Positions 38,488 through 42,842 of a stretch of 64,000 bases of DNA are shown here, piece after piece. The DNA comes from Candidatus Omnitrophota bacterium (GTDB taxonomy: Bacteria > Omnitrophota > Gorgyraeia > Zapsychrales > JBDRMG01). Below the pieces are notes generated by a model, which did no database searches, was not told where the DNA came from, and saw only the letters and a list, made by a program, of their open reading frames with translations. The stretch is taken from positions 4,890 through 68,889 of the forward strand of contig JBDRMG010000002.1 of NCBI GenBank assembly GCA_043812495.1. The letters are read 5' to 3'. A program made the position numbers and the translations under genes. Position 1 is the stretch's first letter. Every line of letters begins with the position of its first letter.

Positions 38488-39489
38488 ATGAAAAATAAGA
38501 TAACATACAAAAATAGCGGTGTGGACATTCAAAAGGCTAATCGCTTTGTCGCTTCCATCGAACGCATGATTGCCGGCACGCAAGCGTCAGCTGTCCTCAA
38601 GAGAAAAGGAAGCTTCGGAAGCTTATTTGCTTTTGATAATAAAAAATACCGCGAGCCTGTTTTGGTCTCCTCAGCAGATGGCGTGGGAACAAAACTGATG
38701 ATCGCGAATTTGGCCGGCAAACACGATACCGTCGGCATTGATTGCGTGGCGATGAATGTGAACGATATTCTCTGCTGCGGGGCCAAGCCTTTATTTTTCT
38801 TGGATTATGTAGCTTGCGGAAAAATTCATCCCAAAGTCCTCAAAGACGTACTCAAGGGAATTGTGTGGGGATGCCAACAAGCCGGATGCAGCTTGATCGG
38901 AGGCGAGACAGCTGAGATGCCGGGTATTTACAAAAAAGAAGACTATGACCTGGCCGGATTTACGGTTGGCGTTGTTGAAAAGAGCCGCATGATCGACGGT
39001 TCAAAAATTCAGGCCGGCGACAGACTGATTGGTCTTGCATCGAACGGACTGCATTCCAACGGTTTTTCTCTGGTACGAAAGATTCTTTCTAAGAAACAGC
39101 AAAAGACAATGGCCCAAGAGCTCCTTAGGCCGACAAAAATTTATGTTCAGCCGGTTTTAGGTTTACTTACCGAATTTTCTATACGAGGAATGGCGCATAT
39201 TACGGGCGGTGCTTTTTATGAAAAATTAACAAAAATTATACCGCAAGGCCTATGCTGCGCGATCGACCAAGGAAGCTGGCCTGTCCCAAAGATTTTTGAA
39301 ATGCTTCGCGCCCAAGGCTGCCTTTCTACGAGGGAAATGTTTACCACCTTTAATATGGGTATCGGTATGGTCCTTGTGGTTCGCCCTAAAGATAGTGAAT
39401 CTGTCAGACGATATCTGCAAAAACAAAAAATACAATCATGGGACATCGGTGAGGTTGTTAAGAATCGTCAAGGAAAGATTAAATTATGA
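38488..39489 (+). CDS. purM: Phosphoribosylformylglycinamidine cyclo-ligase (AIR synthetase)
   Basis: YKNSGVDIQKANRFV N-terminus, PurM N/C domains. Confidence 0.95.
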   Translation: MKNKITYKNSGVDIQKANRFVASIERMIAGTQASAVLKRKGSFGSLFAFDNKKYREPVLVSSADGVGTKLMIANLAGKHDTVGIDCVAMNVNDILCCGAKPLFFLDYVACGKIHPKVLKDVLKGIVWGCQQAGCSLIGGETAEMPGIYKKEDYDLAGFTVGVVEKSRMIDGSKIQAGDRLIGLASNGLHSNGFSLVRKILSKKQQKTMAQELLRPTKIYVQPVLGLLTEFSIRGMAHITGGAFYEKLTKIIPQGLCCAIDQGSWPVPKIFEMLRAQGCLSTREMFTTFNMGIGMVLVVRPKDSESVRRYLQKQKIQSWDIGEVVKNRQGKIKL

Positions 39490-40775
39490 ATGTTCTTGTC
39501 ATCGGTTCCGGCGGCCGTGAGCACACCTTAGTTTGGAAAATACAACAGAGCCCAAAGGTCCAAAAGATTTATTGCGCTCCCGGGAACGGCGGGATCGCTC
39601 AAATCGCCGAGTGCGTCGATATTAAAGCCGAGAATATTCCGCAACTTTTGGAGTTCGCTTCGCAACAATCGATTGATCTTGTTGTGGTTGGGCCGGAGGC
39701 ACCCTTGGTGGAGGGAATCGTCGATGCCTTTGAAGAGAAAGGATTTAAAATTTTTGGACCGTCCCAATATGCTTCCCAGTTGGAAGGCAGCAAGGTTTTC
39801 GCTAAGGAATTTATGAGGCGTTACCATGTTCCGACGTCTGATTTTGAAAGCTTTGAAAATTATGATGAAGCGGTGAATTTCGTTCAAGAAGCTGATTTTC
39901 CTCTGGTGATCAAGGCCGATGGTCTTGCGGCAGGAAAAGGTGTTATGATTTGCCAAAGCCGAAAAGAAGCTCAAGAGGCCCTTGATGACATCATGAAGAA
40001 GAAGATTTTTAAAGACGCGGGTAACAGAGTAATCATCGAAGAGTGTCTGATCGGTGAAGAAGCTTCTATGTTAGCCATTAGTGATGGGTCCGGATTTATC
40101 ATGCTTGATTCCTCGCAGGATCACAAACGGATTTTTGATGAAGATCAAGGACCAAACACCGGCGGTATGGGAGCGTATTCCCCGGCTCCGGTGATTTCCC
40201 AAAGATTAAGCCGGCAAATCGCGCAGACCGTCATTGCCCCCGTGATCGAGGGCATGAAGGAAGAAGGGTATCCTTTTAAAGGAGTTCTTTATGCCGGTTT
40301 GATGATTACGGACAAAGGGCCTTATGTCCTTGAATTCAATGTCCGTTTTGGTGATCCCGAGACACAGGCTGTTTTACCGCGATTAAAAAATGACCTCATC
40401 GATATTATGCTTGCAAGCTGTTACGGCTCATTAAAGAATACCAAACTGCAATGGGACAAAAGAGCGTGTGTGTGCGTTGTGATGAGTTCCCGCGGTTATC
40501 CGGGAAATTATGAAAAAGGAAAAGAAATTACCGGACTGGATGAGGTTTTAAAAGAACAAGACACCATGGTTTTTCATGCGGGAACAAAGCAGGACAAAGA
40601 CAAGATCATCACGTCCGGCGGGCGTGTTTTGGGTGTGACAAGTCTTGGTGAAGGCATACAGGGCGCGATCGCAAGCGTCTATCATTCCGTAGAGAAGATT
40701 CATTTCGACGGATGTTTTTTCCGCAGAGATATTGGCGCTAAAGCGCTCAAGCACACTAATAAAGCCACTGTTTGA
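39486..40775 (+). CDS. purD: Phosphoribosylamine-glycine ligase
   Basis: MNVLVIGSGGREHTLVWKI, ATP-grasp. Confidence 0.95.
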   Translation: MNVLVIGSGGREHTLVWKIQQSPKVQKIYCAPGNGGIAQIAECVDIKAENIPQLLEFASQQSIDLVVVGPEAPLVEGIVDAFEEKGFKIFGPSQYASQLEGSKVFAKEFMRRYHVPTSDFESFENYDEAVNFVQEADFPLVIKADGLAAGKGVMICQSRKEAQEALDDIMKKKIFKDAGNRVIIEECLIGEEASMLAISDGSGFIMLDSSQDHKRIFDEDQGPNTGGMGAYSPAPVISQRLSRQIAQTVIAPVIEGMKEEGYPFKGVLYAGLMITDKGPYVLEFNVRFGDPETQAVLPRLKNDLIDIMLASCYGSLKNTKLQWDKRACVCVVMSSRGYPGNYEKGKEITGLDEVLKEQDTMVFHAGTKQDKDKIITSGGRVLGVTSLGEGIQGAIASVYHSVEKIHFDGCFFRRDIGAKALKHTNKATV

Positions 40776-40815
40776 TTTGGCGTCAATTCTTCATCAAGAG
40801 AATGAGGAGAAGAAA

Positions 40816-41034
40816 ATGAAGAAAAGAACTTTCAGGTTTTTGTCTTTGTTACTATTTCTTTCTTTGCTTTTCGTTTCCCAAGCTTTATTCTTTGTTCAAC
40901 CTGGCATTGCCAGAAACAGACCTTACCCACCGCCGCCCCCCAGCGCACCCCATCTTACCAAGCCTACGGATCCAAATTTCGATGGCATCTATTTCGTTGA
41001 CTGGACAGATATAGGGGGTCAGGTCTCGACTTGA
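40816..41034 (+). CDS. Small secreted proline-rich hypothetical protein; C-terminus runs into REP
   Basis: ATG with GAGGAG SD, signal peptide MKKRTFRFLSLLLFLSLLFVSQA, PPPPP; last codons lie inside REP R1. Confidence 0.3.
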   Translation: MKKRTFRFLSLLLFLSLLFVSQALFFVQPGIARNRPYPPPPPSAPHLTKPTDPNFDGIYFVDWTDIGGQVST

Positions 41035-41042
41035 CGACATGT
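41015..41042 (+). repeat. RAYT-associated REP copy R1
   Basis: GGGGGTCAGGTCTCGACTTGACGACATG; imperfect palindrome GTCAGGTC/GACTTGAC. Confidence 0.8.
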
Positions 41043-41096
41043 CTTTCAAAAAAGGGGACAGCGCCCTTTAATTTAGTACGTACAGCATCAAACCTG

Positions 41097-41123
41097 GGGT
41101 CAGGTCTCGACTTGACGACATGT
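41097..41123 (+). repeat. RAYT-associated REP copy R2 (direct repeat of R1)
   Basis: GGGGTCAGGTCTCGACTTGACGACATG identical to R1. Confidence 0.85.
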
Positions 41124-41130
41124 TAATCAT

Positions 41131-41139
41131 TTGATATAA
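41131..41139 (+). promoter_or_regulatory. Extended -10 TGATATAAT upstream of RAYT
   Basis: TGnTATAAT about 75 nt upstream of ATG 41213. Confidence 0.3.
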
Positions 41140-41212
41140 TTTTTTAAAGTATTTTGCGGATACTTAATGAACAATATCTATACAAAAAGCATCAGAAGGA
41201 TAACAGAAATTT

Positions 41213-42190
41213 ATGGCAAGACCTGTACGGTTATTATTCGAAGGAGCGTATTATCATGTCATCAATCGAGGGCAAAGTAAACGTGAAGTATTTTTGGATG
41301 AAAAAGATTATGAAGCCTTCCTTAAAGTAATAAGAGAAACCTGTCAGACATACAAGGTCAATGTTGTTGCCTATTGCTTAATGCGCAATCACTATCATCT
41401 CATCGTGTACACGCCAAATGCTAATTTACCTGGTTTTATGAGACAGTTAGGCGGTGTGTATACCCAATTCTTTAATCGAAAATACAAACAAGATGGGCCG
41501 TTATTTAAAGGTCGCTATAAGGCGATTGTTGTGCAAGAGGGCAGTTATCTGCTTCGACTTATACGATACATACATAAGAATCCGATACGGGCAAAGATCG
41601 TTGAGCGATTAGATAAATATCGATATTCAAGTCATGGCTTTTACACAAAAGAAAAAGAAAGTGAATGGCTCAAATTCAAAGATATATTAAAAGGGCAATG
41701 GAGAAAGCTGCAAAATTTTAAAAAGGCTTATCTTGATTTTATGAAAAAGGAGGATCAAGAGCTTGAGGAGTACTTGCAGGAAAAAAGCCGCAAGGCCACC
41801 GATGCCATCATCCTTGGAGACGATGAATTTACGGACACAATTAAAATGAACTATCTCCATGGAAAAAGAGTGTACGGGGATGTGCCTCAAGCCAAGCACA
41901 TAAAAGATGAGATGTGTTTTAAAAAAGTTAAGCGAGAGATTATAAAAGAATTTAAGATAGAAGAAGAGATGTTGTATATTTCTAAGCGGGGTAAGGAAAA
42001 TCTAGCGAGACTCTTGGCCATCGGATTGTTAAGGGAATGTAGCGGTATGACCTATAGAGGTATTGGATATGCTCTTCGAATTGAAAGCTATAAAAGTGTT
42101 GCCAAGTATGCGCAGAGGATGAAAGGTCGGTACTTAAAAGACCAGAGGATCAAGAATCTGTTTGATAGGTTGAAGGTGAGATGTATCTAA
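41213..42190 (+). CDS. REP-associated tyrosine transposase (RAYT, IS200/Y1-transposase-like HuH) with DnaA-domain-IV-like C-terminal HTH
   Basis: YHVINRGQ, MRNHYHLIV (HuH), catalytic Y region (YKAIVVQEGSYLL..YIHKNP); C-terminal LARLLAIGLLRECSGMTYRGIGYAL resembles DnaA C-terminal; flanked by inverted REPs. Confidence 0.8.
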   Translation: MARPVRLLFEGAYYHVINRGQSKREVFLDEKDYEAFLKVIRETCQTYKVNVVAYCLMRNHYHLIVYTPNANLPGFMRQLGGVYTQFFNRKYKQDGPLFKGRYKAIVVQEGSYLLRLIRYIHKNPIRAKIVERLDKYRYSSHGFYTKEKESEWLKFKDILKGQWRKLQNFKKAYLDFMKKEDQELEEYLQEKSRKATDAIILGDDEFTDTIKMNYLHGKRVYGDVPQAKHIKDEMCFKKVKREIIKEFKIEEEMLYISKRGKENLARLLAIGLLRECSGMTYRGIGYALRIESYKSVAKYAQRMKGRYLKDQRIKNLFDRLKVRCI

Positions 42191-42206
42191 GTCGAGACCT
42201 GACCCC
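42181..42206 (-). repeat. RAYT-associated REP copy R3 (inverted)
   Basis: GTCGAGACCTGACCCC is the reverse complement of GGGGTCAGGTCTCGAC; overlaps the RAYT stop codon. Confidence 0.8.
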
Positions 42207-42356
42207 TTATTTTTGGGCTTGCCTGCGGTAGACAGGTTAAAACCGGTCCTTTGTTAAAGTTGTTTTCACAGAGTTGTCTTTGCCGGAAAAAATTCATAAG
42301 ACAGATCAACAAATCCAGTATATAATTGAATAAAAATTGATCAAGGAGGACATCAC

Positions 42357-42842
42357 ATGAAAGCTCAGATTGCGATTGTTATGGGAAGCGCATCCGACAT
42401 GCCGACTATGAAAGAAGCTGCTTTGCTTTTAAAAGAATTTAATGTTGCCTTTGAAATGAAAGTTCTTTCGGCGCACCGCGTTCCTGATCAAACCGCTAGC
42501 TTCGCCAAAAATCTCAAGAAACGGGATATTAAAATTGTGATCGCGGGTGCCGGAGGCTCAGCGGCCTTAGCGGGATTCATTGCGAGCCTTACGCCACTGC
42601 CCGTCATCGGGATTCCCATTGAAACATCTTCGCTCAATGGTTTGGATTCTTTATTATCGACCGTGCAAATGCCGTCCGGTGTTCCGGTGGGTACGGTGGC
42701 GATCGGAAAATCCGGCGCGAAAAACGCAGCCCTCTTGGCCTTAAGGATTCTTGGTTTGTCGGATAGAAAAATCCAGGAAAAGTTAGAAAAATACAAGAAA
42801 CAAAGGGCTGAGCAAATCCTCAAGACAAAGGTTAAAATTTGA
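42357..42842 (+). CDS. purE: N5-carboxyaminoimidazole ribonucleotide mutase
   Basis: IAIVMGSASDMPTMKEAALLLKEF, AGGSAALAG canonical PurE. Confidence 0.95.
   Translation: MKAQIAIVMGSASDMPTMKEAALLLKEFNVAFEMKVLSAHRVPDQTASFAKNLKKRDIKIVIAGAGGSAALAGFIASLTPLPVIGIPIETSSLNGLDSLLSTVQMPSGVPVGTVAIGKSGAKNAALLALRILGLSDRKIQEKLEKYKKQRAEQILKTKVKI

Follow-up and report, generated by a model that had tools for sequence, protein, structure and literature searches.

The segment at positions 41015-42206 (1192 nt, ca. 1.19 kb) of a 64,000-nt stretch of contig JBDRMG010000002.1 from a Candidatus Omnitrophota bacterium (hereafter the window) is very likely a TIRtron, a compact mobile element encoding a single transposase of the TIRYT type, inserted between the purine genes purD and purE. 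TIRYTs and TIRtrons were defined by Di Nocera, De Gregorio and Rocco in 2013 as genes resembling those of REP-associated tyrosine transposases (RAYTs) that are flanked by terminal inverted repeats (PMC3733652). The parts of the element are the following, HTH standing for helix-turn-helix.

41015-41042, plus strand: outer left terminal repeat (LE1), GGGGTCAGGTCTCGACTTGACGACATGT, 28 nt; its outer flank, TAG, fits the family consensus TA-R.
41096-41123, plus strand: inner left terminal repeat (LE2), 100% identical to LE1, in the canonical position 89 nt ahead of the ATG.
41112-41140, plus strand: promoter-like site, TTGACG-17-TATAAT, matching the consensus at 11 of 12 positions, with the -35 box within LE2 and a TG extension in the spacer.
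41213-42190, plus strand: TIRYT gene, 325 amino acids, starting at ATG and ending at the TAA stop codon 42188-42190 (from the list of open reading frames, ORFs).
41231-41632, plus strand: Y1/HUH core, residues ca. 7-140, with H60-Y61-H62 and Y119xxxN123P124.
Residues 141-226 of the same gene, plus strand: helical linker between the Y1 core and the C-terminal HTH.
41891-42184, plus strand: DnaA domain-IV-like HTH, residues ca. 227-324, as delimited by the family profile and the predicted fold.
42182-42206, minus strand: right terminal repeat (RE), inverted and overlapping the stop codon.

A sequence-only reading of the window had already described the 325-aa ORF with its HUH motif and Tyr region, two direct repeat copies upstream of it and one inverted copy over the stop codon. 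All of these were recovered, the left copies beginning at 41015, as given, and at 41096, one nucleotide away from the 41097 proposed. The outer 18 nt of RE (42189-42206) are a perfect inverted copy, with an imperfect extension over 42178-42215. Allowing up to three mismatches, the 18-mer occurs three times in the window, against 0.00 expected from 100 shuffles. The start of the window repeats, GGGGTCAG, fits the consensus GGGGWSAS, shared by many of the published TIRYT repeats, some of which also overlap the 3' end of the gene (PMC3733652); in other Omnitrophota the start is GGGGTCAA, deviating from GGGGWSAS at the final position.

The N-terminal part of the protein is closest to RAYTs, as had been claimed. 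It contains the HUH motif MRNHYHLIV at residues 57-65 and the Tyr motif Y119-IHK-N123-P124, which has the class 2 form Y---NP, and a serine motif, S140-H141, lies downstream of the core. The protein matched the Pfam model Y1_Tnp with E=1.3e-16. The top NCBIfam model was REP_Tyr_transpos (NF047646, the RAYT equivalog), whose curated cutoff of 80 bits was not reached by the 69.1 bits obtained; the IS200 model NF033573 gave 24.9 bits against a cutoff of 55. In an AlphaFold (AF2) model of mean pLDDT 86, the N-terminal domain superimposed on E. coli TnpA_REP (4er8_A), its top PDB fold in Foldseek, with a TM score of 0.75 and a root mean square deviation (rmsd) of 2.7 A, the TnpA structures of IS608 and ISDra2 being further matches. 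A profile built from 62 homologues detected 4er8 with E=0.007. A database search retrieved more than 1,000 homologues of ca. 328 aa each, chiefly from metagenome bins of Omnitrophota and Desulfobacterota, the majority of them annotated with PF01797 and PF08299 together; the 100% identical entry is annotated as a transposase of a Candidatus Omnitrophota bacterium. Residues H60, Y61, H62, Y119, H121, N123, P124, S140 and R259 were invariant across the 62 aligned homologues, and all 26 family-invariant residues are present in the full-length window ORF. By these sequence features, the HUH/Y1 single-strand-DNA nuclease-ligase core of the protein is intact, and it is joined to an HTH of the DnaA domain-IV type.

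A DnaA-like C-terminus was also part of the sequence-only reading. The single sequence gave a weak, sub-threshold match to Bac_DnaA_C (E=0.021, Pfam), and the 62-homologue profile matched DnaA domain IV with E=6e-11 for 1j1v and 2e-10 for 8btg. The predicted C-terminal fold aligned with 1j1v_A with a TM score of 0.81 and an rmsd of 1.8 A; 3pvp, another domain IV structure, shares the fold. In the profile alignment, two arginines were kept, the minor-groove and basic-loop residue DnaA R399 corresponding to the invariant R259 and R407 to the nearly invariant R266, whereas the residues that read the DnaA box, D433-H434-T435, aligned to S292-Y293-K294 and the position of H439 was occupied by a small residue. 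Profile match, fold and residue correspondence thus identify a true homologue of DnaA domain IV with a changed reading head, in a protein that has no DnaA domains I-III. Since the box-reading residues are replaced, DnaA-box specificity is not expected. The consensus TTWTNCACA was not enriched in the window (5 observed, 6.2 expected), and the notion of the HTH as a DnaA-box reader was rejected. By analogy, the domain would probably bind duplex DNA of another sequence, and its likeliest target would be the conserved GGGGTCA end, where it could position the enzyme.

The RAYT label of the sequence-only reading was borne out for the Y1 core and not for the protein as a whole, whose score falls below the equivalog cutoff and for which the precise published name is TIRYT/TIRtron, TnpA_REP subclass 2.1.2. 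Quentin (2018) placed most TIRYTs in subclass 2.1, of which 2.1.2 carries a Bac_DnaA_C-like C-terminus, the kinds of C-terminal domain found in it being Bac_DnaA_C-, HTH_23- or HTH_28-like (PMC6006769). In that survey, class 2 genes had low intragenomic copy numbers, and subclass 2.1.2 showed a patchy distribution resembling that left by horizontal gene transfer (PMC6006769). Our assignment to this subclass is based on domain architecture and motifs: the Y---NP form, S140-H141, a long protein, a C-terminal Bac_DnaA_C-like HTH and a patchy distribution are all found here. What departs from the description of the subclass is that the flanking repeat forms a hairpin and that relatives carry it dispersed in doublets, each folding into a hairpin of 25 bp. 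With the TIRtrons of the 2013 study the element shares a Y1 gene placed between terminal inverted repeats, the GGGGWSAS start, a right repeat lying over the 3' end of the gene and, in some genomes, the occurrence of repeats as singles, dimers and clusters; dispersed families of singles, dimers and groups, moderately abundant in some genomes, are on record for some TIRYT repeats (PMC3733652). It differs in that its consensus repeat is a clean hairpin with a 7-bp stem and a 4-nt loop, and in its host, Omnitrophota not having been sampled in that study. Canonical RAYTs and REPtrons are alike in the N-terminal fold, in the flanking of the gene by inverted hairpin repeats, in a consensus GTAG placed 5' of a perfect palindrome and in the enrichment of CT at the 3' boundary. 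They are unlike the present system in lacking its extra 185-aa extension with a DnaA-like HTH, and here the repeat copies amount to tens rather than hundreds and those of the window are without GTAG.

A DnaA_C-like domain associated with GGGGWSAS repeats has been published (PMC3733652, PMC6006769), so the kind of element was already known. The window copy is a routine insertion of this type that changes no established picture, and the host phylum is new; no paper linking Omnitrophota with IS200-type transposases was found in the literature searched. Its value lies in offering a clean and compact example of an uncharacterised branch of HUH/Y1 transposases, in which a single end sequence serves as hairpin, as promoter -35 box and as the last codons of the gene. 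This end sequence is conserved around proteins 38-62% identical, partly across phyla, and gene-less miniature derivatives of it are present in Omnitrophota, a phylum of mostly uncultured bacteria with small genomes.

That the unit is an insertion into the conserved block purQ-purM-purD-purE, with which it is co-oriented, was evidenced, in agreement with the sequence-only reading of an interrupted purine operon, by comparison with 80 metagenome loci encoding PurD relatives (51-67% identity). The order purQ-purM-purD-purE-sua5 was conserved in the closest of these loci. In none of the 43 loci with purD and purE adjacent did a TIRYT gene lie between them, and the absence of the gene from all 43 gaps identifies the unit as an insertion. 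These gaps measured 4-833 nt, mostly less than 215, as against 1581 nt in the window, of which the element fills 1192. An insertion polymorphism between lineages is thus observed. The PurD-relative loci provided no filled and empty pair close enough to define a target duplication. In a subgroup of the set (L081 and L085-L098, PurD identity 58-64%) purE is missing from the cluster and a sua5/yrdC-like gene follows purD at ca. 20 nt, so purD-purE adjacency is not universal in the wider group.

Homologues 38-64% identical to the window protein occupy unrelated neighbourhoods, such as an HD-domain gene with AbiEii, SMC, or rplU-rpmA, and all of them are bracketed by a common 25-nt motif of consensus GGGGTCAAGTCTCGACTTGACTACA, which is partly conserved even at a Desulfomicrobium homologue (L150). 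The inverted right copy always lies over the final codons and stop codon, which explains the conserved C-terminal tail ...C-SQVET. On the left, LE2 is followed by TGTT...TGATATAAT, conserved across the family. The -35 box TTGAC(T/G) sits in the right arm of the left repeat, with a -10 box (T)GATATAAT 17-18 nt further on, an arrangement also found at homologues L046, L020, L033, L050, L023 and L006. The repeat therefore supplies the -35 box of the promoter on one side of the gene and the final codons and stop on the other.

The 19-nt core of the repeat was searched for in one genome per species, and was found in 62 stretches, nearly all from metagenome-assembled genomes (MAGs) of Omnitrophota and a few labelled Planctomycetota. 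Related MAGs carry 2-30 repeat copies, gene-less solos and doublets included, and MAG JAHJCZ01 has 30 copies with one full gene. Most copies have no transposase gene nearby, and many are paired as inverted doublets whose arms lie 8-130 nt apart. Left-end type copies are recognised by the inner flank TGTT, often with the -10 box, and right-end type copies by the inner flank CCTT, a remnant of C-terminal codons. As a doublet consists of one left-end and one right-end copy, it represents a miniature deletion derivative that keeps both ends. When folded, the consensus repeat has 7 bp of stem closing a 4-nt loop (-5.4 kcal/mol, z -3.7), and the doublet gives a 25-bp hairpin (-30 kcal/mol, z -11). 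At L153 the loop is altered and the stem GTCAAG/CTTGAC retained. The sequence-only reading is correct in its observations and supported in its interpretation, and its REP-RAYT-REP arrangement calls for a qualification here: the flanking inverted repeats are there, those of the window are only the element's own ends, and REP-like dispersal is seen in relatives and not in the window.

The window copy itself deviates from the family at its ends. All three repeats carry an A-to-G change in the stem (GTCAGGT) that creates a G-T mismatch; being common to the nearest homologue, P0002 (64% identity, L155), it is a lineage variant. In LE1 and LE2, TACA is changed to GACA, turning GTAG into GTCG on the complement, at a position where 98 of 106 repeat copies have T, and RE reads GTAT in place of GTAG. 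The inner arm of RE has three substitutions relative to the family consensus and to L155 (TGTATCTAAGTC instead of TGTAGTCAAGTC), which destroy the hairpin and bring in an early stop, so that the family tail SQVET is replaced by a single Ile. Judged from an intact gene with ends off consensus, the window copy is probably weakly mobile or immobile.

In related Omnitrophota, the consensus repeat has T-GTAG-TCAAGT-CGAG-ACTTGA-CCCC as its complement. Since this strand has the order GTAG-hairpin-CCCC, the repeat combines the tag of TIRYTs with that of RAYT/REP systems, and at the level of sequence GTAG followed by a perfect palindrome is the layout of group 3 REPs, whose enzymes cleave at CT dinucleotides with GTAG as a guide (PMC8266576). 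Of 102 copies, 65 have CT at the outer boundary on the GTAG strand, where 36 would be expected (p=9e-9), and 40 have TA at positions -3/-2, where 8.8 would be expected. In addition, just outside the repeat, a unit of 12-15 nt made of 4-7 nt of flank plus GGGGTC(A) was tandemly duplicated in 15 of 104 copies, compared with a background of 1.2% (p=4e-12), sometimes with 1-8 filler nucleotides. Such junction stutters were seen at L010, L018, L019, L028, L031, L046, L050, L053, L064 and L069, and in Desulfomicrobium (L150:2919-2960) the unit is three-fold; they are absent at the window copies. One of their boundaries is fixed, directly after the CT of GAGACT^TGACCCC on the GTAG strand, and the other is variable. 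At L150:3936-4052 a larger stretch of the right end, 62 nt comprising the last gene codons and the repeat, is perfectly duplicated in tandem, which gives two right ends in direct orientation.

These data raise the possibility, which we regard as rather unlikely, that TIRYT ends are processed as GTAG-tagged REPs on the strand complementary to GGGG and that the stutters are footprints of cleavage in vivo. The stutters would fit a transfer of the strand to a stray 3'-OH after HUH cleavage, although slippage of replication stalled at the hairpin could produce them as well. Within the TIRtron reading itself, and by inference from RAYTs that have been characterised (Ton-Hoang 2012, Messing 2012, Corneloup 2021), the repeat would be bound by the Y1 domain when single-stranded DNA, for instance at replication forks, lets it extrude as a hairpin, the substrate strand being 5'-GTAG-hairpin-CCCC. 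The enzyme would then cleave at a nearby CT through a 5'-phosphotyrosine link, and strands would be rejoined. Cutting and rejoining of this kind might mobilise the element itself and also, acting in trans, doublets that have no gene. Quentin (2018) noted that GGGGWSAS is unlike DnaA boxes, and suggested a new DNA specificity or a targeting to replication forks; the region that contacts GTAG in subclass 2.2 was reported not to be conserved in 2.1 (PMC6006769). If true, the GTAG reading and the stutters would link TIRYTs mechanistically with RAYT/REP systems, predict a concrete cleavage site and assign the HTH the reading of the duplex GGGGTCA box. Stutters and end features yield testable predictions on the strand and dinucleotide cut by TIRYTs and on the target of the DnaA-type domain, and the stutters and GTAG are the only leads that might merit further work.

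Several observations weigh against the identification of a mobile TIRtron or against the processing proposed for its ends. No REP-like structures were found beside subclass 2.1 genes by Quentin (2018, PMC6006769). The window repeats have no significant fold (LE -2.7 kcal/mol, z -0.5; RE no hairpin), and the hairpin argument is consequently based on the consensus in relatives, where the stem sequence is itself conserved and the hairpin gains no support from covariation. The window contains no dispersed copies besides the three flanking the gene, and L150 and L153, which are more distant homologues, lack a conserved GTAG. None of the PurD relatives forms a filled and empty pair near enough to give exact ends or target, the nearest being 60-67% identical. 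Strand, cleavage site and HTH role are all transferred to TIRYTs from analogous systems.

Only slightly less probable than the opposite is that the window copy is an immobilised relic, the product of a past insertion whose gene is still open but whose ends can no longer be processed, fixed as a decaying passenger in the purine cluster. The loss of the RE hairpin and shift of the stop, the change of GTAG to GTCG in both left copies and the lack of any further repeat within 64 kb would all agree with this, and in canonical RAYTs mutations of GTAG abolish or strongly reduce activity (PMC8266576). Against decay, the ORF is full length with every family-invariant residue in place and the promoter is near consensus; moreover, the A-to-G stem variant shared with the nearest homologue may have co-evolved in the lineage. 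A relic would in any case be a sub-case of the TIRtron, with the same identity and a different activity status. An improbable alternative is a domesticated host gene, a single-copy and vertically inherited RAYT-like protein that upholds REP-like repeats or serves a host function. Such a role would account for the one full gene and several to ca. 30 repeats typical of related MAGs, which resemble RAYT/REPIN systems, and for the low copy number of class 2 genes (PMC6006769). Vertical inheritance is, however, at odds with the 43 related contigs whose purD-purE gap is free of a TIRYT gene, with the entirely different neighbourhoods of the homologues, with the patchy distribution of subclass 2.1.2, with the tandem partial gene copies at L001 and with a window devoid of dispersed repeats.

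Two further explanations are already disfavoured. An ordinary insertion sequence of the IS200/IS605 group with a class 1 TnpA would explain the Y1_Tnp match and the Foldseek matches to IS608 and ISDra2, with which the element shares the HUH/Y1 fold and probably a single-strand chemistry guided by hairpins. This is very improbable: the score of the IS200 model stays below its cutoff, the Tyr motif has the class 2 form, the ends are inverted repeats and not subterminal hairpins on the same strand, and there is no tnpB, which often accompanies class 1 enzymes. These enzymes measure ca. 130-150 aa and have no HTH, the ends of their elements are not inverted repeats, and the 185-aa C-terminal extension is foreign to them. 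Least probable of all is a replication or regulatory protein related to DnaA, for which the repeats would serve as operator or DnaA-box-like sites. Homology of the C-terminal domain to DnaA domain IV speaks for it. The protein has, however, no AAA+ domain, it scored 17 bits against the 344 of TIGR00362 and matched only over the C-terminal 90 residues, the residues that read DnaA boxes are replaced and the boxes themselves are not in excess; an entire HUH nuclease, its catalytic residues invariant, makes up the N-terminal half.

The neighbouring genes and other features of the junction, all of them outside the element except for the small hairpin, are listed below.

39486-40775, plus strand: purD (phosphoribosylamine-glycine ligase), upstream neighbour outside the element (ORF list).
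41051-41069, plus strand: small hairpin, AAAGGG-GACAGCG-CCCTTT, between LE1 and LE2.
42298-42326: promoter-like site, AAGACA-17-TATAAT, matching at 10 of 12 positions, between the element and purE.
42357-42842, plus strand: purE, downstream neighbour outside the element (ORF list).

Transcription of purE could start from the site at 42298-42326 or result from read-through from the transposase promoter. As a site scan found no terminator-like site within the element, there was no ground for arguing a polar effect on purE. Searched against Rfam, positions 40500-42600 gave nothing credible, the top match being a snoRNA model with 16.9 bits and E=0.6.

Just past purD, an ORF of 72 codons (40816-41034) encodes a signal-peptide-like N-terminus (MKKRTFRFLSLLLFLSLLF...) and a Pro-rich stretch and stops inside LE1; precise removal of 41015-42206 would leave its frame open for ca. 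40 codons more. It had no tblastn match in the 80 related purD loci, which leaves the splitting of a conserved gene by the insertion unsupported. The ORF may be spurious, or it may be an orphan gene into which the element inserted.

Some loci of the repeat family in relatives showed rearrangements. In an Omnitrophota MAG, L001:169-3613 is a cluster of element debris with five repeat copies, a 152-aa ORF corresponding only to the DnaA_C-like part and a 74-aa Y1 fragment in tandem with a full gene (310-nt and 507-nt repeats), which suggests repeated local rearrangement. At L004:7192-10205, a 1.5-kb segment with an AbiEii fragment and a peptidase gene, beside a repeat doublet, is duplicated. The duplication is absent in the strain's other three assemblies (L002, L003 and L005), and reflects either a rearrangement associated with the repeat or an artefact of assembly. 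The exact 19-nt core was also found without the full 25-nt repeat at L015 (Sphingobium), L040 (Brackiella), L021, L056 and L061. None of the five has a transposase gene nearby, and a match to the 25-mer with up to four mismatches was obtained only for L040, at four. These matches are probably due to chance or highly diverged, and the range of the family accordingly seems limited, in essence, to Omnitrophota and neighbouring MAGs.

Pairs of repeats in the same orientation, 71-81 nt apart, recur at the window (41015-41123), L049:3712-3807 and L064:1481-1581. The inner flanks are identical in L049 and L064, which identifies the pairs as tandem duplications; those of LE1 and LE2 in the window diverge after TGT. 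Between LE1 and LE2, the 41051-41069 hairpin contains a second GGGGWSAS-like match, the octamer GGGGACAG (41054-41061), which may be left over from another end or match by chance.

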